A stretch of DNA of 64,000 nt from Sphingomonadaceae bacterium (GTDB taxonomy: Bacteria > Pseudomonadota > Alphaproteobacteria > Sphingomonadales > Sphingomonadaceae), in NCBI GenBank assembly GCA_046153565.1, contig JBJXDU010000030.1:3793-67792 (forward strand). Direction: 5' to 3'. Shown here one piece after another: positions 11,150-48,440 of this stretch. The notes under the pieces were generated by a model. The model had not been told where the DNA came from, ran no database searches, and saw only the letters and a program-made list of their open reading frames with translations. The translations under genes and the position numbers were made by a program. Each line of letters begins with the position of its first letter. Positions within the stretch are counted from its first letter, which is position 1.

Positions 11150-11162
11150 GATGGTGATGCAG

Positions 11163-13070
<1,908 letters not shown>

Positions 13071-23483: not shown

Positions 23484-25991
23484 ATGAAATCGACGGCACG
23501 GGTAGTGGTGATAGGGGGCGGCGTTGTCGGCGTTAGCACATTGTATCATCTTGCCAAATTGGGCTGGTCGGACGTTGTCCTACTTGAGCGCAAAGAGCTG
23601 ACGTCGGGATCGACTTGGCATGCGGCGGGGCTATTACCCCTGTTCAACCTGAGCTATTCGGTCGGCAAGATGCACCAATATTCGGTGGGGCTGTATCCAA
23701 CACTTGAGGCCGAAACGGGACTGCATTCTGGCTTCTCAAACGTCACCAACATTCGTCTCGCGGTCACCCAAGACCGGATGGATGAATATGCTTATTATTG
23801 CGGCGTTGCCGAAACTATCGGCGTCGATGTTCGCCGGTTGACGCCTGCGCAGGTCAAAGAGATTTGGCCGCTGTGCATTACCGATGACCTAATTGGGGCG
23901 ATCCAACATCCCGAGGATGGCTATATCCAGCCCGCTGATTTGACCCAAGCGCTCGCCAAGGGTGCGCGGCAACGCGGTGCGACGATTTATCGCAACACGG
24001 TCGTCAATGCGATCACGCAGCAGCCCAATGGTGAATGGCTGATCTCGACCGATCAAGGCGACATCATTTGCGAACATGTCGTTTCGTGCACGGGTAATTT
24101 CGCACGGCAAACCGGGGCGATGGTTGGCCTTGATATTCCGGTCATCCCCGTAGAGCATCAATATGTGGTGACCGAACAGCATCCCGCGATCATGGCGCGC
24201 AAGGCGGCTGGCCTCCCCGAAATGGGCGTTCTACGTGAATCCGATGCTAGCTATTATATGCGCGAAGAAGCGGGTGGCTTGCTGCTTGGCCCTTATGAAA
24301 AGGGTGCGCCAGCTTGTTACATTGATGGCCCGTCATCGAATTCAGAATATGAACTGTTTCCCGACGCGCTTGATCGGCTTGAACCTTACATTATGGCGGC
24401 CATGGCGCGCGTGCCCGCCTTTGGCGAAGTTGGCATCAAGAAAGTCTATAACGGGGCCATCGCTTACACGCCTGATGGATCGCCCATCGTCGGCCCGGCA
24501 TGGGGCCTCAAAAATTTCTGGCTCAATGAAGGTCACAGCTTCGGCGTGACGGCGGCTGGCGGGGCTGGCTGGCAGATTGCACATTGGATCGTCGACGGCG
24601 AGCCGACTATCGACATGATGGGCGTCGATCCCAGGCGCTTTGGCGATTATGCGGGGCGCGGCTATCTGATTGAGAAGAATGAAGAGGCCTATGCCAAGGT
24701 CTTCACCGTTCACTATCCCGATGAAGAGCGTGAGGCCGCGCGTGGTTTGCGGCGCACGCCTTGTTATGACCGGATGAAAGCGCTGGGTGCCGTATTTGGC
24801 AGCGTGTTCGGTTGGGAACGGCCCAATTGGTTCGCGCCAGAAGGCTACAGCCTGACCGACGCTGACCTTGCTAAGCCTGAGGTGCTGCTCAACGACAACC
24901 ACCCCGTTGCGCCCGGTCAAGCAGTGCGCGAAAAATGGTCGTTTCGCCGGTCGAACTATTTTGAGCATGTCGGCGCAGAGTGCTTGCACGTTACGAAGCA
25001 TGTCGGCTTGCAGGATATGAGCGCTTTTGCGAAGTGCGAAATTTCCGGGCCGGGGGCTGAAAGCTGGCTTGACGGGCTGCTGACCAACGCCGTGCCGAAG
25101 AAGATTGGCCGCGTCACGCTTTCCTATTTGCTGACCAGCAAAGGCGGGGTGCGCAGCGAATTCACCGTCTATAAGATTGCGCCGCAACGTTATTATCTTG
25201 TGTCGGCGGGTGCCTATGAACGGCATGATCATGATTATCTGCGCAAGGCTATGCCGCACGATGGATCAGTTACATTCGAACGGCTGACAACATCGATGGG
25301 CGTGCTCGTGCTCGCCGGGCCGAAGTCGCGCGATGTGCTTTCCAAACTGACAGATACTGATCTCTCGAACGAAGCCTTCCCATGGCTCACGGGCAAACGG
25401 ATGAGCATCGGCGCGGCGCCGGTCGATGCACTGCGGGTCAATTTCATTGGTGAACTCGGTTGGGAAATCCATCATCCGATCGAGATGCAAAATTACATCT
25501 TTGACCAGCTGATGGAGGCGGGGGCCGAATTCCGCATCAAGCCGTTCGGCATCCGCGCGATGACTTCGATGGCGCTGGAGAAAAGCTACAAGCTGATCCC
25601 ACGCGAGCTGTCGATTGAATATAGCGCGTTTGAAAGCGGGCTTGATCGCTTCATCAGCCTTAAAAAACCGACCTTCCACGGCCGCGATGCCTTGCTCGCC
25701 AATCGGCAAGCGGGCCATGCCAACGCGCTCGTGACGCTCGAAGTCCACGGCGTCACCGATGCCGATGCGCGCGGTTCGGAGCCGATTTATCAAGGCGATA
25801 TGCTAGTCGGTCGCGCGACATCGGGCGGCTACGGCTGGCGGATTGGCAAATCGATTGCGCTTGCGATGGTGAAAACTGATTTAGCCGCTGAGGGAACTGA
25901 ATTGGAGATTGTCATCCTCGGCAAACGCTACAAGGCAACAATCATTGCCGATTCGCCCTTCGATCCCGATAATAGTGCGCTAAAGGGCTGA
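23484..25991 (+). CDS. FAD-dependent oxidoreductase fused to a GcvT aminomethyltransferase domain (dimethylglycine/sarcosine dehydrogenase-like), paralog 1
   Basis: 835 aa. VVVIGGGVVGVS dinucleotide fold, SGSTWHAAG (covalent-FAD histidine context) and a C-terminal folate-binding GcvT region (ELGWEIH). Confidence 0.85.
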   Translation: MKSTARVVVIGGGVVGVSTLYHLAKLGWSDVVLLERKELTSGSTWHAAGLLPLFNLSYSVGKMHQYSVGLYPTLEAETGLHSGFSNVTNIRLAVTQDRMDEYAYYCGVAETIGVDVRRLTPAQVKEIWPLCITDDLIGAIQHPEDGYIQPADLTQALAKGARQRGATIYRNTVVNAITQQPNGEWLISTDQGDIICEHVVSCTGNFARQTGAMVGLDIPVIPVEHQYVVTEQHPAIMARKAAGLPEMGVLRESDASYYMREEAGGLLLGPYEKGAPACYIDGPSSNSEYELFPDALDRLEPYIMAAMARVPAFGEVGIKKVYNGAIAYTPDGSPIVGPAWGLKNFWLNEGHSFGVTAAGGAGWQIAHWIVDGEPTIDMMGVDPRRFGDYAGRGYLIEKNEEAYAKVFTVHYPDEEREAARGLRRTPCYDRMKALGAVFGSVFGWERPNWFAPEGYSLTDADLAKPEVLLNDNHPVAPGQAVREKWSFRRSNYFEHVGAECLHVTKHVGLQDMSAFAKCEISGPGAESWLDGLLTNAVPKKIGRVTLSYLLTSKGGVRSEFTVYKIAPQRYYLVSAGAYERHDHDYLRKAMPHDGSVTFERLTTSMGVLVLAGPKSRDVLSKLTDTDLSNEAFPWLTGKRMSIGAAPVDALRVNFIGELGWEIHHPIEMQNYIFDQLMEAGAEFRIKPFGIRAMTSMALEKSYKLIPRELSIEYSAFESGLDRFISLKKPTFHGRDALLANRQAGHANALVTLEVHGVTDADARGSEPIYQGDMLVGRATSGGYGWRIGKSIALAMVKTDLAAEGTELEIVILGKRYKATIIADSPFDPDNSALKG

Positions 25992-28485: not shown

Positions 28486-28758
28486 ATGATGCTGATCCCC
28501 TGCCCTTACTGCGAAGAAGCGCGTCCCGAAATTGAATTTGCTTATGCCGGACAAGCCCATATCGCGCGCCCTGCTGACCCTTCGACACTGAGTGACCAAG
28601 AATGGGAAGCCTTTCTGTTCATCCGCGCCAATCCGCGCGGACGACATAATGAACGGTGGCGGCATGTGCATGGGTGCGGGCGCTTTTTCAATGCGGTGCG
28701 TGACACCGTGACCGACAAGTTTGAAACAACGTACAAAGCGGGCGAGGCGCGGCGGTGA
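28486..28758 (+). CDS. soxD: Sarcosine oxidase delta subunit
   Basis: Trimmed to MMLIPCPYCEEARPEIEFAYAGQAHI, the SoxD zinc-ribbon start, giving about 90 aa. It starts 2 nt after the soxB stop. Confidence 0.85.
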   Translation: MMLIPCPYCEEARPEIEFAYAGQAHIARPADPSTLSDQEWEAFLFIRANPRGRHNERWRHVHGCGRFFNAVRDTVTDKFETTYKAGEARR

Positions 28759-31712
28759 CTGGCTACCGATTACCAAATGGCGGGCGCATTGACCGGTCAC
28801 GGCCGCTGACATTCAGCTTTGATGGCAAGACATATCAGGGCTTTGCAGGCGATACACTCGCATCCGCGTTGATCGCCAATGGGGTGCGGCTTTTTGGTCG
28901 CTCGTTCAAATATCACCGCCCGCGCGGAATCATGGCGGCAGGCACGGAGGAACCAAACGCACTCGTCTCGGTCACGCGCGGCCCGGGGCGTCACACCCCC
29001 AATCTGCGCGCGACGTCGGTTGAGCTTTATGAAGGCCTGACCGCAAGCAGCCAAAATCGCTGGCCATCGCTGCGCTTTGATCTGGGCGCGATCAATGATC
29101 GCTTGTCGATGTTATTCCCCGCTGGTTTTTACAACAAGACCTTCATGTGGCCGCGATCATTTTGGGAAGCGCTTTATGAGCCTGTGATCCGCAAATTGGC
29201 GGGGCTGGGCAACCCGCCGACCGAGCGTGATCCTGACCATTACGGTGCAACCTACGCCCACTGCGATTTGCTCATCGTGGGCGCTGGCCCTGCCGGGATT
29301 GATGCGGCGCTGGCGGCATCAGCAACGAACAAGCGTGTCATCTTAGTTGATGAGCAAGATGAACTTGGCGGCGGTTCGCTGAGCGATCCCGCACTATGGC
29401 CATGGCTTGATCGCAGCATAAAGGCGCTGAGAGCGGCGCCAAATATCCGCGTGCTGACGCGCACGACGGCCTTTGGCTATTATCATGACAATATGGTCGG
29501 CGCGGTTGAGCGGCACACCGATCAGCTTGCCAAGATCCTCCCCGGGACGGTGGGGAGCGAGTCGGTCATGCTCCCTGAGCATTTATCGCACAAATCGGAT
29601 GCCCCCCTCCGTCAGCCTGCGACTGACACCGCCCTGTCCCGGGAAGGATTGCCTCCGCGCGAAACATTATGGCGCATCCGCGCAGGCGAGGTGATTTTGG
29701 CCCAGGGCGCAATCGAGCGACCATTGGTGTTCAGTGGCAATGATACGCCCGGGGTCATGCTGTCATCCGCCGCCAAGACATTCACTGTGCGCTTCGGGGT
29801 CGCAGTGGGGAAATCAATCGCGCTGTTTGCCGCGCATGACAGCGGCTGGCACGATGTGTTTGCGCTCGCCAAAGCTGGCGTCATCATTGCGGCAATAATT
29901 GACGTGCGTGATCAGGTTGATCCAGCGTTGCAGGCGCAAGCTGAAGCACTGGGCATTCCCATATCCCTCGGCCACCGCGTTAGCGCCGTTAAGGGCCGGC
30001 ACGGCGTCAGCGCGGTCACCATAATCGCGTACGGCAGCAGCGCTGTTCGCGACATTGCCTGTGATGCGCTCCTGATGGCAGGCGGCTGGACTCCCAGCGT
30101 CCATCTATGGTCGCATAGCAAAGGCAGTCTGAAGTGGGACGATGACTGGGGCGCTTACCTGCCCGGTACGCCTCTTGAAACTGCACGCTGTGTTGGCGCA
30201 GGCGCGGGCGATTGGCAGTTCGGCAGCGGCGTTGCCCACGACACACAGAATCCGGACAAGCAAAAGGCCTTTGTCGATTTTCAAAATGACGTGACCGCGA
30301 AGGATATCAGGCTCGCCATCCGCGAAGGCTTCACGTCGGTTGAACATATCAAGCGATACACGACCAACGGGATGGCGACCGACCAAGGCAAGACATCAAA
30401 CATTAACGGCTTGCAAATCGCATCGGAGGCGCTCTCGCTACCGATCAGCGCGATCGGCCTCACCACGTTTCGTCCCCCCTATACGCCGCAAACGTTTGGG
30501 GCGCTTGCCGGGCATTTGAGGGGTGACCTGTTTCAGCCAACCCGCAAATCGCCGATTGATGGCTGGGCGGATGCGCAGGGTGCAGTATTTGAACCTGTCG
30601 CGCAGTGGCGGCGCGCGCGCTATTTCCCAAAAGCGGGTGAAGATATGCATGCGGCGGTCAACCGCGAATGTGTGGCGGTTCGGGAACGCGTCGGCATTTT
30701 CGATGCTTCAACGCTTGGCAAGATCGAAGTGGTCGGGCCAGATGCTGCCGAATTCCTCAACCGGATGTACACCAATCCGTGGAAATCGCTTGAGCCGGGG
30801 CGCTGTCGATACGGGCTGTTGCTCAAGGAAGATGGTTTCATCAGCGATGACGGCGTGTCCGCGCGCCTTGCGCCTGACCGGTTTCACTTGACCACAACAA
30901 CGGGCGGGGCCGCCCGCGTGCTCAATATGATGGAGGATTATCTCCAAACCGAATGGCCCGATCTTGATGTGTGGCTGACAAGTGTAACTGAAGAGTGGGC
31001 AGTGATTGCCTTGCAAGGGCCCGATGCCCGCAAAGTGTTAGCGCCGCTGGTCGAAGGGATTGATCTGTCGCCCGATGCATTTCCTCATATGGCCATCCGG
31101 GAGGGTAAAATCTGCGGCGTGCCAACGCGACTGTTCCGGGTGAGTTTCACCGGTGAGCTTGGCTTTGAGATCAACGTACCAGCAGGTTACGGACACAAGC
31201 TTTGGGAGGCGCTGATGACGGCGGGGGCTGCGCACGGCATAACGCCGTACGGCACCGAAGCGATGCACGTCCTGCGCGCGGAAAAGGGCTTCATCATCGT
31301 CGGGCAGGATACAGACGGCACCGTAACACCCGCAGATGCCGGGCTGGGATGGGCGGTGGGCAAAAAGAAGCTCGATTTCGTGGGCAAGCGGTCGCTCACG
31401 CGGCCCGATATTGTCGCGGCGGGGCGCAAGCAATTGGTTGGGCTGCTTACCGATGATCCCAAGGTTGTTCTGGAGGAAGGCGCACAAATCGTCGCCGATC
31501 CCGATCAGCCGATACCCATGACGATGATCGGTCACGTCACATCATCTTATTGGAGCGCGACGCTGGGCCGCTCGATCGCGATGGCCCTCGTTGCCGGTGG
31601 CCACAACCGCATCGGTGAAACGCTTTATATCCCCATGCCCGAAGGCACCCTGCGGGCAATTGTTTCGGAAAGCGTCTTTTATGATCCGCAAGGAGCGCGG
31701 CTAAATGGCTGA
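28755..31712 (+). CDS. soxA: Sarcosine oxidase alpha subunit (carries an in-frame repeat insertion)
   Basis: 985 aa. N-terminal LTFSFDGKTYQGFAGDTLASALIANGV, LLIVGAGPAGI and a C-terminal GcvT-like folate domain. 4-nt overlap with soxD. Confidence 0.9.
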   Translation: MTGYRLPNGGRIDRSRPLTFSFDGKTYQGFAGDTLASALIANGVRLFGRSFKYHRPRGIMAAGTEEPNALVSVTRGPGRHTPNLRATSVELYEGLTASSQNRWPSLRFDLGAINDRLSMLFPAGFYNKTFMWPRSFWEALYEPVIRKLAGLGNPPTERDPDHYGATYAHCDLLIVGAGPAGIDAALAASATNKRVILVDEQDELGGGSLSDPALWPWLDRSIKALRAAPNIRVLTRTTAFGYYHDNMVGAVERHTDQLAKILPGTVGSESVMLPEHLSHKSDAPLRQPATDTALSREGLPPRETLWRIRAGEVILAQGAIERPLVFSGNDTPGVMLSSAAKTFTVRFGVAVGKSIALFAAHDSGWHDVFALAKAGVIIAAIIDVRDQVDPALQAQAEALGIPISLGHRVSAVKGRHGVSAVTIIAYGSSAVRDIACDALLMAGGWTPSVHLWSHSKGSLKWDDDWGAYLPGTPLETARCVGAGAGDWQFGSGVAHDTQNPDKQKAFVDFQNDVTAKDIRLAIREGFTSVEHIKRYTTNGMATDQGKTSNINGLQIASEALSLPISAIGLTTFRPPYTPQTFGALAGHLRGDLFQPTRKSPIDGWADAQGAVFEPVAQWRRARYFPKAGEDMHAAVNRECVAVRERVGIFDASTLGKIEVVGPDAAEFLNRMYTNPWKSLEPGRCRYGLLLKEDGFISDDGVSARLAPDRFHLTTTTGGAARVLNMMEDYLQTEWPDLDVWLTSVTEEWAVIALQGPDARKVLAPLVEGIDLSPDAFPHMAIREGKICGVPTRLFRVSFTGELGFEINVPAGYGHKLWEALMTAGAAHGITPYGTEAMHVLRAEKGFIIVGQDTDGTVTPADAGLGWAVGKKKLDFVGKRSLTRPDIVAAGRKQLVGLLTDDPKVVLEEGAQIVADPDQPIPMTMIGHVTSSYWSATLGRSIAMALVAGGHNRIGETLYIPMPEGTLRAIVSESVFYDPQGARLNG
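29533..29650. repeat. Nested-palindromic element, copy C, in frame inside soxA
   Basis: 29533-29556 (AGATCCTCCCCGGGACGGTGGGGAG) matches the copy A left end. 29602-29650 (CCCCCCTCCGTCAGCCTGCGACTGACACCGCCCTGTCCCGGGAAGGATT) matches the reverse complement of the copy A left arm at about 44 of 51 positions by my hand alignment. The boundaries are approximate. Confidence 0.65.
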
Positions 31713-37069: not shown

Positions 37070-37942
37070 TTAGTCGCGCGCACCAGCTGACAGCGCGGCG
37101 ATATGTGCGGCCCCAATCCCGCAACATCCGCCGACCATTGTTGCCCCCGCTGCGATCCATTTCTGCGCCCAATCGAGGTAGCGCGGCGGATCAAGGTCAG
37201 CGCGAATTTGCTGCAAATCAACATTGGCATCCTTGTCTTCGGCCTTCGCCGCAAAGCCGTTGGCGTAAACGCCAATCGCGATCTCACTATCGCCGAGCGC
37301 TGCCTTCGCCGCCGCAACGGCGGCCTCCATCACCTCAGGCGCGCTGCAATTGAACAGAAGAGCTCCCGCGCCAACCTGTTTCGCAAGCGCGGCGGCTTGG
37401 GCGATTGTTTCCCCCGAGCGCAGCATAGGTTCGCCGTCATCCTTAAGCGTGAATGACAGCCATAATGGCCGCTCATCCCCCGCCAGCAAATCAGCGATCA
37501 ACGCTCCCTCTGCAATCGTGCTGAGCGTTTCGGCGAGCCAGATATCGGCGGTGGGGGATAGCGCCGCGATCAGCACCTCAAGGATGGCTTTTGCCGCGTT
37601 CACTTCAAACAAGTCAGGCCGATACGAACCAAGCACCGGTGGCAATGAGGCCGCAACTCTGATGCCCCGCCGATCCGCAACCTCGCGCGCCAGCTGCCCC
37701 GCGCGCGCGGCCAAAGCGGGGCCTTCCGCCGCAAATCGATCCTCGCCAATATGGAACGGCACAACGGCATAGCTATTGGTGCTAATCACCTGCGCGCCTG
37801 CCACCGCAAAATCGTCATGCACTTGCGCCACCAAATGCGGGGTTTCGATAAGCGCAAGCGCCGACCATTCAGGCTGACGAAAGGGCGCGCCAAGCCGTTG
37901 CAGCTCGCGGCTGATCCCGCCATCGAGGATGGTAACACTCAT
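37070..37942 (-). CDS. Homocysteine S-methyltransferase family protein (betaine- or S-methylmethionine-homocysteine methyltransferase type)
   Basis: 290 aa. ILDGGISRELQ start, and the C-terminal zinc-ligand context VGGCCGIGAAHI is typical of Pfam S-methyl_trans. 4-nt overlap with the fdsB stop. Confidence 0.8.
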   Translation of the reverse strand: MSVTILDGGISRELQRLGAPFRQPEWSALALIETPHLVAQVHDDFAVAGAQVISTNSYAVVPFHIGEDRFAAEGPALAARAGQLAREVADRRGIRVAASLPPVLGSYRPDLFEVNAAKAILEVLIAALSPTADIWLAETLSTIAEGALIADLLAGDERPLWLSFTLKDDGEPMLRSGETIAQAAALAKQVGAGALLFNCSAPEVMEAAVAAAKAALGDSEIAIGVYANGFAAKAEDKDANVDLQQIRADLDPPRYLDWAQKWIAAGATMVGGCCGIGAAHIAALSAGARD

Positions 37943-39504
37943 GCGGGATCACCGCGAAAATCTTCGGGAAAGTGCGTTATCGCACTCATTACGGGATAGG
38001 GGGTGAAGCCGCCAAGCGCGCAGAGCGAGCCGAATTTCATCGTTTCGCATAAATCAGCGATCAGCGTCAGATTCTCCTCACGCCGCTCGCCTGCGATGAT
38101 CCGGTCAAGCGTTTCAACGCCGCGCGTGCTGCCCAATCGACACGGCGTGCATTTGCCGCAGCTTTCAACCGCGCAGAATTCCATCGCAAAGCGCGCTTGC
38201 TTCGCCATGTTGACGCTGTCGTCAAATATCACGATTCCGCCATGCCCGATCAAACCGTCGGCAGCGGTGAAGGCCTCATAGTCAAACGGCAGATCGAAAT
38301 CGGCAGATGTATGATAGGCGCCCAGCGGCCCGCCAACTTGAACCGCGCGCACGGGCCTCCCGCTCGCAGTGCCGCCGCCAATATCGTTCACTAACTCACC
38401 TAAAGTGACGCCGAACGCGGTTTCGAACAAGCCGCCTTGCTTCACATTGCCCGCAATCTGGATTGGCATCGTCCCGCGTGATCGCCCCATGCCAAAGTCG
38501 GCATAGGCCTGCGCGCCGTTAGCAAGGATCCACGGCACGGCGGCAAGCGTTAGCACATTGTTGATCACCGTCGGGCAGCCGAACAGCCCCTCATGCGCGG
38601 GAAGCGGCGGTTTGGCGCGCACTTCGCCGCGTTTGCCCTCCAAGCTGTTGAGCAGCGACGTCTCCTCGCCGCACACATAGGATCCGGCCCCGACGCGGAT
38701 TTCGACCTCGAACGGCGCGATGATACCCGCGCACAGGCGGACGGCGGCCTCCATCTTGGCAATGGCATGCGGATATTCGGAACGGATATAGACATAGCCC
38801 TTCCCTGCACCCGTCGCGTGGGCCGCAATTGCCATCCCTTCGATCAGCATGAAGGGATCGCCCTCCATCACCATCCGATCAGCAAAGGTGCCGCTATCGC
38901 CTTCGTCCGCGTTGCAGACGATATATTTGCGTGCGCCTGCCGCGTCAGCCACGGTTTTCCATTTAATCCCCGCCGGGAACCCCGCCCCGCCCCGCCCGCG
39001 CAGCCCCGAGGCAAGCACGGTCGCGCAGACGTCAGCCGGGGCCATAGCGCGCGCAGAATGCAGCCCCGCCCACCCTCCGGTCGCGGCATAATCGTCAAGG
39101 CTCAGGGCACGCGTCTTGCCCGCGCGGGCAAAGGTTAGGCGAGTCTGGCGCGCGATGAAGGGGTGGTCGGCGATGCGGCCGATGCACAATTCCTCCCTGA
39201 GCTTGCCTCGGGGAGGGAGACCATCCGCAGGATGGTGGAGGGGCAATGGCTCAGCCGCTTTCCCCTCCACCACGCCCTGCGGGCGCGGTCCCCCTCCCCG
39301 AGCAAGCTCGGGGAGGATTTCATCGACATCCCCCACCGACACCGGCCCATAGCCAATGCCATCAATCTCGACGAGCGGCTCAAGCCAGTGCATCCCCCAG
39401 CTCGACACGCGTTCGACCGTTACCCCGGCCGCCTCACATGCCGCCGCTACAGAATTAGCACCGCACGCAATCGCAAGGGCATCGTCAGAAATACGAACAA
39501 TCAT
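37939..39504 (-). CDS. fdsB: NAD-dependent formate dehydrogenase beta subunit (NuoF-like; carries an in-frame repeat insertion)
   Basis: 521 aa. GLRGRGGAGFPAGIKW (FMN/NADH site), ESCGKCTPCRLG (4Fe-4S) and an N-terminal thioredoxin-like domain. Confidence 0.88.
   Translation of the reverse strand: MIVRISDDALAIACGANSVAAACEAAGVTVERVSSWGMHWLEPLVEIDGIGYGPVSVGDVDEILPELARGGGPRPQGVVEGKAAEPLPLHHPADGLPPRGKLREELCIGRIADHPFIARQTRLTFARAGKTRALSLDDYAATGGWAGLHSARAMAPADVCATVLASGLRGRGGAGFPAGIKWKTVADAAGARKYIVCNADEGDSGTFADRMVMEGDPFMLIEGMAIAAHATGAGKGYVYIRSEYPHAIAKMEAAVRLCAGIIAPFEVEIRVGAGSYVCGEETSLLNSLEGKRGEVRAKPPLPAHEGLFGCPTVINNVLTLAAVPWILANGAQAYADFGMGRSRGTMPIQIAGNVKQGGLFETAFGVTLGELVNDIGGGTASGRPVRAVQVGGPLGAYHTSADFDLPFDYEAFTAADGLIGHGGIVIFDDSVNMAKQARFAMEFCAVESCGKCTPCRLGSTRGVETLDRIIAGERREENLTLIADLCETMKFGSLCALGGFTPYPVMSAITHFPEDFRGDPA
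39189..39320. repeat. Nested-palindromic element, copy B, in frame (132 nt = 44 codons) inside fdsB
   Basis: The plus strand reads AATTCCTCCCTGAGCTTGCCTCGGGGAGGGAGACCATCCGCAGGATGGTGGAGGGG ... TTTCCCCTCCACCACGCCCTGCGGGCGCGGTCCCCCTCCCCGAGCAAGCTCGGGGAGGATTT. This has the same architecture and end sequences as copy A. Confidence 0.78.
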
Positions 39505-42211: not shown

Positions 42212-43456
42212 TCACCCCGCCGTTTCCAAACCAAACTGGTTTAGATACCATTGCTGAAATTTGACCACTGAACCTTCCTGATCCGAATAGCGGCCCGGGC
42301 GGTAACGGCTCGACATGATCCCGGCCTGATTATTTTCGGTGATGATTTTGTCTTGAGTTGTGGTGGCGTGATAGCCCCAGATCATCTTTTCCACATCGAC
42401 ATCCGCCTCGGTCGCGCGACCGTCGACAAGCCAGATCATCTCGACGTCGGATGCGAGCGCGCTGCGCGGTGTGAATTGGAACAGGATCACAAAATGATCG
42501 TCCGCCACAATCTGGCTGAACGGGCTGAAGCTCAAATGCATGCGGCCACGATCAGGGGCGGTACGTTTGCCCATTAGCGGGGACGGCGCAGAACCATCCT
42601 GCGTTTCGGCGGCCCAGCCATCCTTTGCCTGCCGTTGCATTAGCAGGCGCAAGTGACTGCTATCGGTTTCGTCATCGATCGTGCCGACCGGGCGGCCCAA
42701 TGCGGCGGCGCTCGCCTCCCATGCGGCTTGTTTGGGCGCGAAGGCAGCGGCGGCATCGGCAGGCCCCGAACTTGGTCCAGCACCAACCGCAATCAGCGTC
42801 TCCGCCGGATGCATCGAACAGAATTCGGGGTGCGACGGGACGCAGTGATAGCATTCGAAGAAATTCTCGATCACCAGCTTCCAATTGGCAGTGGTAGGAT
42901 AGCTGCCCGCATGCGCGATGCGCGCGTCAGCGATCCCATGATAATCGAGGATCGGCCCCAGATCGCCGAAGGTCGCATCGAAATCGTCGGGCTCACCCTC
43001 GCTCATGTTGATGAAGATCAGGCCGTGGAACACACGGATGTGGCAGGTCAGCAAACCATTTTCGGCTTTGTCAAAATCATCTGGCATCAGGCGCGCGGAG
43101 ATCAGCCGCCCGTCAAGGCCAAAGGTCCAGGCATGATAGGGGCAGACAAGCCGCGGGGCATTGCCGCTTTCGGCCTGGCAGATGGTCGAACCGCGGTGAC
43201 GGCAGACGTTGAAAAAGGCGCGGACGCTGTCCATATTTTCGCGGATGATGATGATCTGTTCGGCACCGATTTTGAACAGGAAATAATCGCCCTTGTTCGG
43301 GATGCGCGACATATGCCCCGCCATGATCCATTTCTGGCTGATGACCTTTTCCATATCGGCGGCGAATACGGCGTCGCTGGTGTAGTAGTCTTGCGGCAGG
43401 CTATATCCCATCCGGACATCGGCGGCGAGGCGTTGCATCGTATCAGCGTGAGACAT
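42212..43456 (-). CDS. Rieske non-heme iron oxygenase, GbcA/Stc2-like, paralog 2
   Basis: 414 aa. CRHRGSTIC...CPYHAWTF Rieske motif and ENFFECYHCVPSHPE iron motif. Its start shares 1 nt with the upstream stop (TGATG). Confidence 0.83.
   Translation of the reverse strand: MSHADTMQRLAADVRMGYSLPQDYYTSDAVFAADMEKVISQKWIMAGHMSRIPNKGDYFLFKIGAEQIIIIRENMDSVRAFFNVCRHRGSTICQAESGNAPRLVCPYHAWTFGLDGRLISARLMPDDFDKAENGLLTCHIRVFHGLIFINMSEGEPDDFDATFGDLGPILDYHGIADARIAHAGSYPTTANWKLVIENFFECYHCVPSHPEFCSMHPAETLIAVGAGPSSGPADAAAAFAPKQAAWEASAAALGRPVGTIDDETDSSHLRLLMQRQAKDGWAAETQDGSAPSPLMGKRTAPDRGRMHLSFSPFSQIVADDHFVILFQFTPRSALASDVEMIWLVDGRATEADVDVEKMIWGYHATTTQDKIITENNQAGIMSSRYRPGRYSDQEGSVVKFQQWYLNQFGLETAG
42232..42259. 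repeat. 28-nt direct repeat, copy 2 (inside the 3' end of the Rieske gene)
   Basis: CAAACTGGTTTAGATACCATTGCTGAAA. See 41092-41119. The two copies bracket the MDR gene. Confidence 0.7.
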
Positions 43457-45900
43457 CAGATTTTAATCCGTGCGTTTGTGGGGTCGTACATGGGTTTGAG
43501 CGAGGCGGTGACGGGATAGCGCACGCCGGCAATTTCGATTTCATAATCATCGGCACCAATCGCGCCAACCACGCCGCCATCGGCAGCGGTGACATAGCCT
43601 AGGCCACATGCGCCGCCGAGCGTGTGCGCGTACATCCCTGAACGGATATAGCCTGCGATGCGGTCACCCTGCCAGATCGGTTCATTGTGATAGAGCATCG
43701 GCTCGGGCGACTTCAGCAAGAACTGGACGAGGCGCTGTTTCAGCCCATCTTCCTTTTGGCGCAAAAGCGCATCGCGACCGATAAAGCCGCCGGGCTTACC
43801 CATCTTGACAGCAAAGCCAAGGCCCGCCTCCAAAGGCGTATCTTCATCGGTGATATCATGGCCCCAGTGGCGATAGCCCTTCTCCATGCGCAGCGCGTTG
43901 AGCGCGTGATAGCCGCAATGTTTGAGGCCAAACGCCGCACCCGCCGCGACGATTTCGTCATAGACGCCCGCCATAAATTCGGTGGGAATATAAAGCTCCC
44001 ACCCAAGCTCACCCACATAGGTGATCCGCGAGGCGCGGACGATGGCATAGCCTAGTTCGATCTCTTGGCTGGTCGCGAAAGGGAAGGCCTCGTGCGACAA
44101 ATCGTTGGGCGACAGTGACTGGAGCAGCGCGCGGGCATTTGGCCCCATGATCGAAATCACACCCATGCCCGATGAGACATTGGTGAGCACCGCATGCGCA
44201 TCGTCCGGCATGTGGCGTTTGAGCCAGTTGAAGTCGCGCGTTTCGGTTTCGGCACCCGTCACGATCAGATAGGCGGTTTCGGAGAGGCGCGTGACGGTGA
44301 GATCTGCCTCGATCCCGCCCTTGTCATTGAGCCACTGCGTATAGACCAGTCTGCCCGGCACGACATCAACATCGTTCGCACACACCCGGTTCAGCAACGC
44401 ACAAGCATCGCGGCCTTCCAGCCGGAATTTGGCGAAGCTCGACTGATCGAACAGCCCGACCGCTTCCCGCACCGCTTTGCATTCCGCCGCATTGGCATCG
44501 AACCAATTCTGGCGGCCATAGCTATAGGCGTATTTGGGCGCGCTGCCCGCTTCGCCATACCAGTTGGCCCGTTCCCAGCCGAACGCCTCGCCAAAGCAGG
44601 CTCCTGCCGCCGCCAGCCGGTCATGCAGCGCTGACTTGCGCACCCCGCGCGCGGTTTCATATTGTTTGAACGGATAATGCGTCGCGTAGAGCAAGCCGAG
44701 GCTTTCGGTGACGCGTTCGCGCAGATATTTGCGGTTGATCTGGAACGGCATGTTGCGCCGGATATCGACGCTCCACAGATCGGCCGGGGGGATGCCATCG
44801 CGGATCCAATCGGCCATCACCTTGCCAATGCCGCCCGCCGATTGCAGGCCGATCGAATTGAGGCCAGCAGCTACGAAGCAGCCCTTCAGCTCAGGCGCTT
44901 CGCCCAGATGATAGCGCACATCGGGCGTGAAACTTTCCGGCCCGCAGAAGAATTTCTGGATGCCCGCTTTCTCCAGCGCAGGCACGCGGCGCATTGCGTC
45001 CATCAACAACGGTTCGAAATGTTCAAAGCTGCCCGCGATCTCATCAAAGCAGAAATCTTCGGAAATGCCGTCCATGCCCCACGGCCGGGCATTAGGTTCA
45101 AACGCGCCGACGAGCAGCTTGCCCGCATCATATTTGTAATAGCCGCAATAATCATAATCGCGCAGCACGGGCAGCGTGTTGTCGATCCCTTCGACGCCTT
45201 CGAACAAGACGTAGTAATGCTCGCAAGCATGCAAGGGGGCTGCAACGCCGATGCTCGCGGCCAAGTCACGCGTCCACATGCCGCCGCAGATCACGACATA
45301 GTCGGCGTCGATTGCGCCTTCCGCCGTGTCCACACCCGTGACGCGGTCGCCATTGTGGCGGATGCGCGTCACCTTGGTATTCTCGAAAATCCGCGCTCCC
45401 CCGCTCCGCGCCCCCTTGGCCAGCGCCTGCGTGATATCGACCGCGTTGGCATAGCCGTCGCTCGGGATATGGATGCCGCCGACGACATCATCGACATTGA
45501 CGATGTTCGCCAGCGCCTTGATCTCTTCGGGCGTAACGACATGAACGGGCAGGTCAAACACTTTGGCCATCGAGGCGCTGCGTTTCAGCTCCTCAAAGCG
45601 CTCGGCATTGGTCGCCATCGAGATCGAGCCGCATTGGCGATAACCCGTCGCCTGACCCGTTTCGGCCTCAAGCCCGCGATACAGTTCGCCGGTATATTTG
45701 GCGAGCTTGGTCATATTGATACTCGGGCGAAGCTGCCCAACCAGCCCCGCCGCATGCCAGGTGGTGCCGCTGGTCAGTTGTTTGCGCTCAAGCAGCACGA
45801 CATCATCCCAGCCAATCTTGGTGAGATGATAAGCAATTGAGCAACCGATGACGCCGCCGCCGATGATAACGACCTTTGCTTTCTTGGGGAGTTCAGCCAC
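43456..45900 (-). CDS. FAD-dependent oxidoreductase / GcvT fusion (dimethylglycine/sarcosine dehydrogenase-like), paralog 2
   Basis: 814 aa. KVVIIGGGVIGCS, SGTTWHAAG and a C-terminal GcvT domain (GELGWELY). Confidence 0.85.
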   Translation of the reverse strand: MAELPKKAKVVIIGGGVIGCSIAYHLTKIGWDDVVLLERKQLTSGTTWHAAGLVGQLRPSINMTKLAKYTGELYRGLEAETGQATGYRQCGSISMATNAERFEELKRSASMAKVFDLPVHVVTPEEIKALANIVNVDDVVGGIHIPSDGYANAVDITQALAKGARSGGARIFENTKVTRIRHNGDRVTGVDTAEGAIDADYVVICGGMWTRDLAASIGVAAPLHACEHYYVLFEGVEGIDNTLPVLRDYDYCGYYKYDAGKLLVGAFEPNARPWGMDGISEDFCFDEIAGSFEHFEPLLMDAMRRVPALEKAGIQKFFCGPESFTPDVRYHLGEAPELKGCFVAAGLNSIGLQSAGGIGKVMADWIRDGIPPADLWSVDIRRNMPFQINRKYLRERVTESLGLLYATHYPFKQYETARGVRKSALHDRLAAAGACFGEAFGWERANWYGEAGSAPKYAYSYGRQNWFDANAAECKAVREAVGLFDQSSFAKFRLEGRDACALLNRVCANDVDVVPGRLVYTQWLNDKGGIEADLTVTRLSETAYLIVTGAETETRDFNWLKRHMPDDAHAVLTNVSSGMGVISIMGPNARALLQSLSPNDLSHEAFPFATSQEIELGYAIVRASRITYVGELGWELYIPTEFMAGVYDEIVAAGAAFGLKHCGYHALNALRMEKGYRHWGHDITDEDTPLEAGLGFAVKMGKPGGFIGRDALLRQKEDGLKQRLVQFLLKSPEPMLYHNEPIWQGDRIAGYIRSGMYAHTLGGACGLGYVTAADGGVVGAIGADDYEIEIAGVRYPVTASLKPMYDPTNARIKI

Positions 45901-45903
45901 CGA

Positions 45904-48321
45904 TCAAACCTTCATCTTCGCATTTTCGGGATCGTAAGCGGGATGTTCGAGCACCGTGCCAGCACGCCGTTCGCCTTGCAGCATGATGTCAAACGCCGAA
46001 CCCGGCACGGCATTTTCAATCGGCACACAGGCGAAGAACAGGCTCTTGCCCACGCGGTGGCCATAGCCGCCTGATGTGGTGAGGCCGATGCATTCGTCGC
46101 CAACGAGACAAGGCTCAGCCCCGCGCACATCGACGTTGCTGGCCTCGACTTCGCCGTAAACAATGCGGAACCGGTCGGGCGCATCGAGCGTCGCTTGCTT
46201 GCCGACGAAATCATCTTTCTTGAAATTGATGAAGCGCGGCAAATCGGCCTCGATCATCGTCAGTTCGTTGGTGAGTTCAGACCCCCAGGCTTTATAGCCC
46301 TTTTCCATCCGCATCGTATTGGCGGCGTAGAGTCCGTAATTGACGATGCCGAATTCCTGCCCCGCTTCCCACACCGCGTCGTAAAGCGCAGCGAGATCGC
46401 GGATTTCCGGATGCAACTCCCATCCCAATTCACCCGCATAGGAAACGCGGAGTGCAGTCATTTTGATCCCGGCGATCGACGCGACCCGCCCGCTCAACCA
46501 GCGGAAGCCTTCATTGCTCAGATCAACATCGGTCAGTTTGCTCAGCACATCGCGCGATCGCGGGCCATTCATCACCAGCACACCCCGGTCCATCGTCAGA
46601 TTGAGAATGGTAACATCTTCGTCCGGCATTTTGCTCTGATTAAGCCAATCCAAATCGCGCTGCTCGGCGGCGGCGGCAGAAAGGCAGTAAAAATAATTCT
46701 CAGCCAGTTTGGTAACAGTCATTTCGCCGTAAATGCGCCCTTGCTTTGACAGCAGATGCGTCAGCGCGATCCCCCCCATTTTCTTGGGCATCCGATTGGC
46801 GCAAATACGGTTCAGAAAAGCCTCGGCATCAGGGCCACACACATCATATTTGGCAAAGCCCGACAAATCGAGCACGCCGACGCGCTCAGCCACCGCCTTC
46901 ACTTCAGCAGCGACCGCATCGAAACTGTTGGTGCGATGATAACCGCCCTCTTCCTCAGCCCCGTCGAGCGCGAAATATTTTGGCCGTTCCCAACCATAGG
47001 TCTCGCCGTAAACCGCGCCTGCCGATTTCAATTTCTCATAGAGCGCGCTGGTCTTTTGCGGGCGGCCATCGGGTTCTTCTTCGCCGGGAAGCCGCGTAGT
47101 GAAGGTCATCCGGTAATCGAGGAACACCTTGTCGCGGCTATACTGTTCATCGGCATAGGGGCCGTAACGGCGCGGATCAAACTCGGTCATGTTGATGTCA
47201 GCATCGCCGAACACCATCCACTGCGCCATATATTTGCCAGCCCCGCCGCCCTGCGCGATGCCGAACGAGGTGCCGCAACATTGCCAGAAATTCCTGAGGC
47301 CCACGGCAGGCCCGAGCAGCGGCCCACCATCAGGAGTGTGCGGGATCGCGCCGTTGACGAAGCGGCGCAGGCCGACTTCGCCAAAGATCGGCATCCGCTC
47401 AATCGCGCGTTCAAGCCAGGGGGCGATCCGTTCCAGATCCTCGGGGAACAGCTCGCTGGTTGATTCCCATTCGGGATGCCCGCCGCGCGGCACCCAGGCC
47501 TCGGCAAGGCCGGTGCTTTCATAAACGCCGATCAGCCCGCTCTTCTGCTCCTGCCGGAAATAGCCCGAGACGTGCGGGCAGCGCATGACGGGAATTTCCT
47601 CGCCGCGCTCCTGAAAGGCCGGAATGGGATCAGTGACGACATAATGATGCTCCATATTGGTCACCGGAATGTCGATTCCCGCCATCTGCGCGACCCGCCG
47701 CGCATAGCACCCAGCGGCATTAACGACGATTTCGGCGCGAACCGTCCCCTGATCGGTGATCACGTCCCATTCGCCCGACGGTAATTGGGTGAGGCCCGTG
47801 ACAAGCGTTTTGCGCTGTATCTTCGCGCCCATGTTTTTGGCACCAATGGCAAGCGCATTGCAGATGCCCGATGGGTCAGCATGGCCATCCTGCGTCGTCC
47901 GCGCGCCCGCAATCACGCCGTCGAGCGTCATGAACGGATTGTGTTTGAGAATTTCTTGCGGAGGAATGATCTCCATGTCGAAGCCAATGATCTTCGAAAA
48001 ACCAAGAATATAGCGCATCCACGCCAGCTCGCGCTCATTGGTCGCAAGGCGGATGCCGCCCGATGCGTGCCAACTGACATATTGGCCCGTCAGCCCCTCC
48101 AGCTGCGGATAAAGCTGGTTTGAATAAGCATGCATTTTCGCCAGATTATAGCTGCCGGTGATATTGGGGCATTGCCCCGCCGCATGCCATGTCGAGCCTG
48201 AGGTTAGCTCATCCTTCTCGATCAGCAGGCAATCGGTCCAGCCGAGTTCCGCAAGATGGTAGAGCAATGACGCCCCCATGATCCCGCCCCCGATAATCAC
48301 AACTCGTGCTGATGACTGCAT
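45904..48321 (-). CDS. FAD-dependent oxidoreductase / GcvT fusion (dimethylglycine/sarcosine dehydrogenase-like), paralog 3
   Basis: Trimmed to MQSSARVVIIGGGIMGAS, with an AAGGAG SD 10 nt upstream of the ATG at 48321. SGSTWHAAG and a C-terminal GcvT domain (GELGWELH). Confidence 0.85.
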   Translation of the reverse strand: MQSSARVVIIGGGIMGASLLYHLAELGWTDCLLIEKDELTSGSTWHAAGQCPNITGSYNLAKMHAYSNQLYPQLEGLTGQYVSWHASGGIRLATNERELAWMRYILGFSKIIGFDMEIIPPQEILKHNPFMTLDGVIAGARTTQDGHADPSGICNALAIGAKNMGAKIQRKTLVTGLTQLPSGEWDVITDQGTVRAEIVVNAAGCYARRVAQMAGIDIPVTNMEHHYVVTDPIPAFQERGEEIPVMRCPHVSGYFRQEQKSGLIGVYESTGLAEAWVPRGGHPEWESTSELFPEDLERIAPWLERAIERMPIFGEVGLRRFVNGAIPHTPDGGPLLGPAVGLRNFWQCCGTSFGIAQGGGAGKYMAQWMVFGDADINMTEFDPRRYGPYADEQYSRDKVFLDYRMTFTTRLPGEEEPDGRPQKTSALYEKLKSAGAVYGETYGWERPKYFALDGAEEEGGYHRTNSFDAVAAEVKAVAERVGVLDLSGFAKYDVCGPDAEAFLNRICANRMPKKMGGIALTHLLSKQGRIYGEMTVTKLAENYFYCLSAAAAEQRDLDWLNQSKMPDEDVTILNLTMDRGVLVMNGPRSRDVLSKLTDVDLSNEGFRWLSGRVASIAGIKMTALRVSYAGELGWELHPEIRDLAALYDAVWEAGQEFGIVNYGLYAANTMRMEKGYKAWGSELTNELTMIEADLPRFINFKKDDFVGKQATLDAPDRFRIVYGEVEASNVDVRGAEPCLVGDECIGLTTSGGYGHRVGKSLFFACVPIENAVPGSAFDIMLQGERRAGTVLEHPAYDPENAKMKV

Positions 48322-48440
48322 GAAACGCCTGCTCCTTATATGCATAGCTTAGGCCGCGCAGGGGCACTGAGACAAATGGGTATTATGGGAGGATTGGTTC
48401 AAAATTTTTATGCGTCGATTGCAGCTTGCCGGTCATCCCC

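Follow-up and report, generated by a model that had tools for sequence, protein, structure and literature searches.

Palindromic repeats read in frame within genes are already known, from the Rickettsia palindromic elements (RPEs) and from the intragenic CGTC and GTAG repetitive extragenic palindromes (REPs), those of sphingomonads included. RPEs are established as in-frame gene insertions (Ogata et al. 2000, Claverie & Ogata 2003, via PMC2229807 and PMC3184786), and Delihas's table gives RPEs with 12-bp terminal inverted repeats and open reading frames (ORFs). In R. conorii, truB is a host of RPE-1 (PMC3733652). CGTC REPs are found chiefly in Alphaproteobacteria, among them Sphingomonas wittichii, Sphingopyxis alaskensis and Erythrobacter litoralis, and are usually arranged as head-to-head dimers (PMC3733652). 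Some CGTC and GTAG REPs are intragenic and encode 8-30 amino acids in hosts such as truB, lnt and tRNA synthetase genes, all of which are REP hosts in S. alaskensis and E. litoralis, and CGTC REPs are without a dedicated transposase according to Di Nocera et al. (PMC3733652). Bacterial MITEs (miniature transposable elements with inverted repeats) found in frame in genes include the enterobacterial ERIC/RU-1, the 107-bp Correia element and the pneumococcal repeats RUP/BOX/SPRITE (Delihas 2007, 2008, 2011: PMC2759123, PMC2229807, PMC3184786). Finally, the Caulobacter CcrM-associated intergenic repeats (CIRs; Chen & Shapiro 2003, via PMC2229807) are alphaproteobacterial, ~110 nt long with two hairpin arms and a linker, and that source ascribes to them a conserved GANTC, stop codons in all six frames and no intragenic copy. 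Here we describe a stretch of 64,000 nucleotides (the window) from contig JBJXDU010000030.1 of a Sphingomonadaceae bacterium (GCA_046153565.1), in which soxA, the gene for the sarcosine oxidase alpha subunit, contains a copy of a GC-rich palindromic repeat in its reading frame. Very probably, this copy was inserted in the window's own lineage after its split from the closest relative, independently of other insertions at the same place, and is tolerated as a surface loop.

A decayed repeat copy within soxA

The window segment 29533-29651, read directly as AGATCCTCCCCGGGACGGTGGGGAG...CCCCCCTCCGTCAGCCTGCGACTGACACCGCCCTGTCCCGGGAAGGATTG, contains a member of the AAATCCTCCCC...GGGGAGGATTT repeat family. 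The initial annotation, made from the letters of the window, had described it as a second copy of the palindromic element that lies between ligA and ligB. The strings that it quoted are present where it placed them, except that the first is 25 nt long and spans 29533-29557 rather than 29533-29556, and the peptide that it assigned to the segment, KILPGTVGSESVMLPEHLSHKSDAPLRQPATDTALSREGLPPRE, is that of the soxA frame. Smith-Waterman alignment of the whole segment placed the 3' arm against the reverse complement of the left arm of the ligA-ligB element with 46 identities over 55 positions and a score of 66. Dinucleotide shuffles gave a mean score of 16.7 with a standard deviation of 2.6, and none out of 2000 reached the observed score (z 18.8). 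The arm similarity is thus significant, and the hand-counted identity of about 44 of 51 positions is recounted as 44 of 51 in its own 51-column frame. The 5' end of the soxA copy resembles the left end of the ligA-ligB element more weakly (score 28, z 4.5, reached by 6 of 2000 shuffles).

The inverted termini of the family, ATCCTCCCCG...CGGGGAGGAT, are found in the soxA copy as ATCCTCCCCGGGAC at 29535-29548 on the plus strand and ATCCTTCCCGGGAC at 29636-29649 on the minus strand. Matches to the terminus pattern number five in the window against 0.8 expected by chance, and they pointed to three elements, located in soxA, in the ligA-ligB spacer and in fdsB (Table 1). An nhmmer profile made from 121 repeat copies, all from other genomes and none from the window, gave exactly three matches in the 64 kb, with the boundaries listed in Table 1. 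The match in soxA has an E-value of 3e-6 and a score of 23 bits, and extends over model positions 2-131 of 131. The arm statistics together with this profile from outside the window bear out that the soxA copy and the ligA-ligB element belong to one repeat family. An Rfam scan of the whole window gave no match to the repeat at gathering thresholds, and no Rfam family fits it.

A coincidental resemblance, an ordinary lineage-specific loop or a chimeric assembly, towards which the weakness of the 5' match taken alone and the unknown quality of the assembly might point, is hard to reconcile with the score of the 3' arm, with the full-length match to an out-of-genome profile that finds only three places in the 64 kb, and with the preserved reading frame. 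In addition, the independent Logan assembly SRR28962028 encodes an identical 985-aa SoxA, with 5 nt differences in 4143 nt. Since the same protein is obtained from an independent sequencing run, the insert is not an assembly artefact, and this explanation is effectively refuted.

The soxA copy is also the most decayed in the window, as had been proposed, with 23 bits against 54-57 bits for the copies in the ligA-ligB spacer and in fdsB. As to the inner hairpins and the G-run and C-run boxes of the family (GACGGAGGGG ... CCCCTCCGTC), its 3' arm is intact, with an unpaired CGTC head beside the hairpin (CCTCCGTCAGCCTGCGACTGACACC), whereas the 5' inner arm has been lost or deleted, and the alignment to the hidden Markov model (HMM) skips model positions ~21-47. 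The inner stems, of 5-6 bp in good copies (CAGTCC-GCA-GGACTG in the ligA-ligB copy, for example), are imperfect in soxA. When folded as RNA, the soxA copy reaches -54.4 kcal/mol (z -3.5) and keeps the terminal long-range stem. It is the least structured of the three, the z values being -5.0 for the ligA-ligB copy and -10.8 for the fdsB copy. The decay makes the proposed older insertion plausible, although the age of the event is not dated by it.

An extra loop in SoxA and its recurrence

The soxA gene is located in a soxB-soxD-soxA-soxG operon, and the same synteny is found in another locus (L006). The reading of the repeat within the soxA frame was borne out by an intact ORF of 985 aa, whose product matches PDB 2gag_A and 1vrq_A end to end (E ~1e-209). 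The 120 closest homologues are 74-79% identical to the window protein, and the named closest relatives are all Sphingomonadales. In the alignment with the PDB chain, query residue 258 pairs with chain residue 224 and query residue 301 with chain residue 233, which leaves ~34 extra residues in the window protein. Of the 120 homologues, 105 are proteins of 953 aa that in a local alignment have a 6-residue loop such as PEIGDA (LPEIGDAPRE in context), compared to the 42 residues of the window loop, AKILPGTVGSESVMLPEHLSHKSDAPLRQPATDTALSREGLP. The window protein is thereby longer by 36 residues, and the gene by 108 nt. The insertion of roughly 35-40 aa expected from the DNA is thus present. The extra loop corresponds to SoxA residues 259-300 (AKILPGTV...SREGLP), with the repeat itself read as residues ~261-299, and is rich in Ser, Pro, Thr and Leu. 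The nearest relative of the window SoxA, P0002, which shows 81% identity in the columns that both occupy and whose gene is likewise surrounded by soxG, LysR and FdhD, carries an empty site, GCC GAA ATC GAC AGC ACA CCC CGC GAA.

The loop sequence is hypervariable among SoxA orthologues. Five of them (P0013, P0026, P0030, P0031 and P0050, of 957 aa) have a loop longer by 4 aa (ADGGPNGENA versus the ADGGNA type), which shows that small indels unrelated to repeats are tolerated there. Both the hypervariability and this variant are what a permissive loop would predict.

We propose that a GC-rich, nearly palindromic and non-autonomous repeat of ~116-145 nt would have inserted into soxA, at a short hypervariable loop connecting two beta-strands in the N-terminal, dinucleotide-binding part of the alpha subunit. 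With a net gain of 108 nt (36 codons) and a stop-free frame the gene would have stayed open, and the repeat would be translated as an additional loop of 36 residues. The insertion could survive because the net length is a multiple of 3 and the frame is open. The event would date from after the split of the window lineage from its closest known relative, and would be separate from the other loop insertions of sphingomonads. Following insertion, the copy would have drifted. It has since lost its inner hairpins and ~10-25 nt, as would a passenger whose upkeep as a repeat has ceased. The loop is presumed to be solvent-exposed and functionally neutral, and the repeat may have moved by the normal mechanism of its family into a loop that tolerates extra residues. 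As in the proposals made for MITEs and REPs, a transposase probably moves the repeat in trans, none being identified.

Several points weigh against this proposal. No direct repeat of 2-9 bp that would mark a target-site duplication was found around the 121 copies beyond the AT set by the search pattern, and nothing of this kind distinguishes among them a DDE-type MITE from a Y1-type mechanism. No transposase has been linked to the repeat family, no dedicated search for a cognate DDE, RAYT or TIRYT enzyme having been made. The element measures 116 nt against a net gain of 108 nt, and neither the exact insertion boundaries nor a target-site duplication can be defined, because the empty-site relative P0002 is only 81% identical and the site is in a variable loop. 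Translation of the insert is suggested by the open frame alone. Surface exposure of the loop is weakly suggested by an AlphaFold2 model of SoxA (32-sequence alignment) that is poor overall, with a mean predicted local distance difference test (pLDDT) score of 46, and in which residues 257-300 are predicted as coil (block pLDDT ~24-34) between strands 247-253 and 303-309.

The same loop has received repeats in other proteins. Three SoxA of 997 aa (P0003, P0004 and P0006) have a 44-aa insert at the same codon-level site as the window SoxA (P0001), encoded by 141 nt that belong to the same family and are well preserved, AATCCTCCCCGCAACGGGGAGG...CCTCCGTCAGCCCTGCGGGCTGCCACCTCCCCGTTCCGGGGAGGATT. A fourth protein, P0007 (988 aa, GCA_043741135.1), contains at this site a different palindrome, TTCCCCTGCGAAGGCAGGGGTCC...GGACCCCTGCCTTCGCAGGGGAA (L005, ~2995-3100), which is in frame and encodes the peptide SPAKAGV...TPAFAGE. 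The terminal motif of this palindrome is abundant in metagenomes (at least 120 stretches), and the repeat is similar to the REPs that Di Nocera et al. 2013 class as CGTC-1, whose peptides are VIPAKAGI...IPAFAGMT (PMC3733652).

A neighbour-joining tree of SoxA was calculated with the insert columns removed and with 100 bootstraps. In all 100 bootstraps the window SoxA and the empty-site P0002 formed a bipartition that left out the other 118 proteins, and the insertion bearers clustered together in none. The inserts of loci L002 and L004, which carry the 141-nt copy, are each other's best match, variable centre included (score 90, the next best being 69), yet when compared with the window insert they come no higher than rank 14-15 of 125, its best matches being unrelated copies of the family. 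The pairing of P0001 with P0002 and these ranks lead us to read the window insertion as an independent event. The window insert would instead be orthologous to the 44-aa insert of P0003, P0004 and P0006 if a single ancient insertion had been precisely lost in most lineages, including P0002. The common codon-level site, the common repeat family and the CCTCCGTCAG-type 3' arm present in both inserts would agree with such a history, which however is contradicted by the tree and by the match ranks and would require dozens of precise in-frame losses. It is therefore highly improbable. A single event giving rise to both the window insert and the 997-aa insert was rejected on the insert match ranks and the bootstraps. 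For the 997-aa proteins themselves, which seem to share one insert without clustering, the options are that they recombined, that the insert was lost several times, or that it arrived repeatedly from master copies resembling one another.

The SoxA loop has taken up a repeat on three or more separate occasions, from two or more families. A further independent event may be represented by Swit_0943 of S. wittichii (974 aa, annotated as 'glycine cleavage T protein'), for which the supplementary table of PMC3733652 gives a CGTC-1 REP at residues 224-232. The equivalent of the SoxA loop in 2GAG (965 aa) is residues 225-232, the correspondence being judged from residue numbers alone.

The insert might also have been domesticated, serving SoxA, for example as a new interaction loop, or the mRNA, with the stem acting as a translational pause or processing site. 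The soxA copy does fold better than shuffled sequences, 1 of 200 shuffles being as good. Moreover, between L002 and L004 the insert arms are 94% and 90% identical, compared to 58% for the centre and 72-78% for the flanking soxA DNA, so that the DNA or RNA itself may be under constraint in those lineages. The window copy, by contrast, shows more decay than the other two and no longer has its inner hairpins, most orthologues work without any insert, and the presence of different repeat families in the same loop indicates a permissive site rather than a needed sequence. Given this decay and the many insert-free orthologues, a functional role as peptide or as mRNA hairpin is less likely, and we consider domestication improbable. 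Independent insertion into a tolerant loop is the explanation that we retain.

Anatomy, range and reading frames of the repeat family

The repeat family is real, widespread and abundant in Sphingomonadaceae and Caulobacteraceae. We scanned GTDB species-representative genomes with the pattern AATCCTCCCC-N(95-125)-GGGGAGGATT, and obtained at least 124 matches of 116-145 nt in at least 120 DNA stretches. Among the matches listed, nearly all belong to Sphingomonadaceae (Sphingomonas, Allosphingosinicella, Sphingorhabdus, Porphyrobacter) or to Caulobacteraceae (Caulobacter, Brevundimonas). From the outside inwards, the repeat begins with (A)AAT and continues with a hairpin at the terminus, CCTCCCCG-loop-CGGGGAGG, another short hairpin and a variable centre, followed by the mirror image. 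Fold and alignment show the arms to be complementary end to end, as terminal inverted repeats, and the GC content is ~70%. The second hairpin exists in two flavours, 'type A' (GTGGCAG..CTGAC GGAGGGG, with CGTC on the other strand) and 'type B' (GGGGACC..GGT GGAGGGG), the latter having arms (GGTGGAGGGG) without CGTC. Both are freely mixed, with 43 BB, 17 AA and 28 mixed copies. The tail of the inner hairpins is (C)CACC. Outside the repeat ends, the base at -1 is A in 64% and the base at +1 is T in 58% of the 121 copies. GANTC is present in 22 of these 121 copies, in all but one of them within the variable centre. In the window it is absent from the ligA-ligB and fdsB copies and occurs once in the soxA copy (GAGTC at 29559).

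Table 1. Positions of the repeat copies and of soxA. Coordinates are those of the window unless a locus from another genome (L) is named.
Feature	Position	Strand	Remarks
Decayed full-length palindromic repeat copy in soxA	29535..29650	+	nhmmer, Smith-Waterman, RNA fold
5' terminus and terminal hairpin remnant of the soxA copy (ATCCTCCCCGGGACGGTGGGGAG)	29535..29557	+	exact match to pattern ATCCTCCCCGRGAC
3' arm of the soxA copy, CCCCCCTCCGTCAG-CCTGCGACTG-ACACC-GCCCTGTCCCGGGAAGGATT	29598..29650	+	'type A' arm with CGTC motif
soxA, sarcosine oxidase alpha subunit, 985 aa, intact	28755..31712	+	ORF list, PDB match
Well-preserved copy filling the ligA-ligB spacer	11165..11288	.	nhmmer E 1e-16; reference copy of the initial annotation
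Well-preserved copy inside fdsB	39190..39319	-	nhmmer E 9e-16; host gene 37939..39504 (-)
141-nt soxA insert	L002 and L004, 10779-10919		GCA_021732525.1 and GCA_965188385.1
In-frame repeat in valS	L021, 3914-4043		N-P-P frame
In-frame repeat in methylmalonyl-CoA mutase gene, linker before B12 domain	L061, 6722-6852		N-P-P frame
In-frame repeat in lnt	L072, 3233-3364		N-P-P frame
In-frame repeat in truB, two Sphingomonas species	L031, 1544-1671; L059, 2591-2724		I-L-P frame

The initial annotation had also suggested a constraint on the family to remain translatable in the frame that starts (K/E)-I-L-P. This could not be upheld: the frames are mostly open, the lengths show no preference for multiples of 3 and other frames are used. 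Over the 121 copies and both strands, the stop-free fraction is 66.5% for the N-P-P frame, 76.4% for the I-L-P frame and 63.6% for the S-S-P frame, compared to ~51% in composition-matched controls with a shuffled interior, and the stop codons are mainly within the variable centre. Element lengths modulo 3 are distributed 41/32/48, without bias towards multiples of 3. The I-L-P excess is modest, with a chi-square p of 0.002 that treats the copies as independent, which they are not. As the repeat is GC-rich, it is mostly open in every frame; the I-L-P frame is somewhat commoner, and there is no family-wide constraint. The intragenic copies are a subset that has a compatible length and frame by chance.

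Other intragenic copies were searched for in ~1 Mb of loci from other genomes and checked by Pfam and by codon-position GC. Thirty ORFs span an element with at least 100 codons on each side. They are mostly antisense or otherwise non-coding, and on inspection by eye only those of valS, methylmalonyl-CoA mutase and lnt appeared real. The codon-position GC filter recovered valS and methylmalonyl-CoA mutase and added two truB cases. The truB, soxA and fdsB copies are all read in the I-L-P frame. In-frame insertion is thus a habit of the repeat family, the frame not being fixed. An open frame across an element was rejected as a proof of coding, since the DNA is GC-rich and most of the 30 spanning ORFs are non-coding. 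A word-indexed search with the FdsB insert peptide returned only a 58-aa hypothetical protein. A profile search of 1.84 billion representatives gave 26 hits, mostly ORFs of 44-75 aa that are spurious calls on intergenic copies, a 45-position, low-complexity profile being unable to attain significance inside long proteins with a library of this size.

The other two copies in the window are well preserved. The copy in fdsB lies in the gene for FdsB, the NuoF-like beta subunit of NAD-dependent formate dehydrogenase (Pfam Complex1_51K, NADH_4Fe-4S), and is read in frame as DEILPELARGGG...GKLREEL, with the insert peptide DEILPELARGGGPRPQGVVEGKAAEPLPLHHPADGLPPRGKLREEL. The FdsB chains 9wxb_C and 6tg9_B in the PDB are without these ~33 aa at the insert position. 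The window therefore contains two in-frame intragenic copies, in soxA and fdsB, less than 10 kb apart. The third copy takes up the entire spacer of the two-subunit dioxygenase operon ligA-ligB. It is spanned in the I-L-P frame by a 46-codon ORF on the plus strand, from an ATG at 11151 to a TAG at 11289-11291. This stop consists of the last T of the element and the next two bases, and lies one base before the ligB ATG at 11293. The ORF is probably spurious.

Besides these copies, three inverted 'repeats' of the window (I1, I2 and I4, 70-76% complementary) pair an 835-aa ORF at 23484..25991 (+) with two minus-strand ORFs, at 43456..45900 (814 aa) and 45904..48345 (813 aa). They are taken to be paralogous genes and not mobile DNA. 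Related loci have, at the place of 23484..25991, a dimethylglycine-dehydrogenase-like gene with DAO, FAO_M and GCV_T domains.

Significance and comparison with known repeat systems

The soxA copy shows clearly, and in a way that can be checked, that a conserved metabolic enzyme outside Rickettsia can take in a selfish palindromic repeat and stay intact. Two features lift it slightly above a routine example: two repeat families have repeatedly colonised one SoxA loop, and two in-frame copies occur within 10 kb. The loop is a natural marker of a permissive site, useful for engineering insertions in heterotetrameric sarcosine oxidase, and it offers a small model of targeting versus selection as the cause of recurrence. 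For annotation, such repeats make length variants of conserved proteins as well as many spurious short ORFs, and should be masked or flagged. The recurrence at soxA, truB, lnt and tRNA synthetase genes might reflect a preference for a target in DNA sequence or structure, such as GAAAT^C or a nearby hairpin, beyond survival at permissive sites. A more speculative idea, which we regard as possible although doubtful, is that an RPE-like system operates in free-living, culturable Sphingomonadales and Caulobacterales and repeatedly seeds new peptide loops at the same few sites. If true, experiments on protein evolution by insertion of a selfish repeat, and on how it works, would become feasible beyond obligate intracellular bacteria. 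In a literature coverage that was incomplete, and hence as weak evidence, we found no name for the family and no paper describing the present composite element or the soxA insertion.

The family was compared with each of the described systems. Like the CIRs, it is an alphaproteobacterial repeat with hairpin arms that is present in Caulobacter. It differs from the CIRs as described in PMC2229807, as only 22 of its 121 copies contain GANTC, 64-76% of copies are stop-free in each frame, and intragenic copies exist. It resembles bacterial MITEs, which are small and non-autonomous, with terminal inverted repeats and open frames, and which occur as fusions within protein genes or at their ends. Target-site duplications, of TA or another sequence, are however typical of MITEs, and a matching insertion sequence (IS) transposase exists for some of them, whereas the present copies show a possible AT only, and no cognate IS came to light, no search aimed at one having been made.

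The likeness to the CGTC REPs is closer. In type A arms, an inward CGTC precedes a short hairpin that has a CCA(CC) tail, which looks like a head-to-head dimer inside an outer palindrome. On the other hand, the present unit is a composite of ~125 nt with additional terminal hairpins, CCTCCCCG-loop-CGGGGAGG, and AAAT/ATTT ends. CGTC REPs have a stem of 8-9 bp starting with A-T, a loop of 4-5 nt and a CCA tail (PMC3733652), which the 5-6 bp stems of the present repeat, as read from the sequences, do not fit. Many of its copies have type B arms without CGTC (43 BB versus 17 AA), and none of the peptides in the intragenic table of Di Nocera et al. (PMC3733652) matches the present family.

The closest parallel in behaviour is with the RPEs. 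Both are palindromic, are ~100-150 nt long, and occur between genes as well as in frame within functional genes, to which they add a peptide segment. The copy in soxA is in this mode, being a palindromic repeat in frame in an open and otherwise conserved gene. Host genes also overlap, as truB and aminoacyl-tRNA synthetase genes are found with both (PMC3733652). RPE hosts, however, are obligate intracellular, AT-rich Rickettsia, whereas the present hosts are free-living, GC-rich Sphingomonadales and Caulobacterales. The element itself is ~70% GC, and its termini are unrelated to those of RPEs. Because the named SoxA relatives are Sphingomonadales and the element is 70% GC, membership of RPE-1 to RPE-10 by sequence is implausible, and the two systems would share their mode of action alone.

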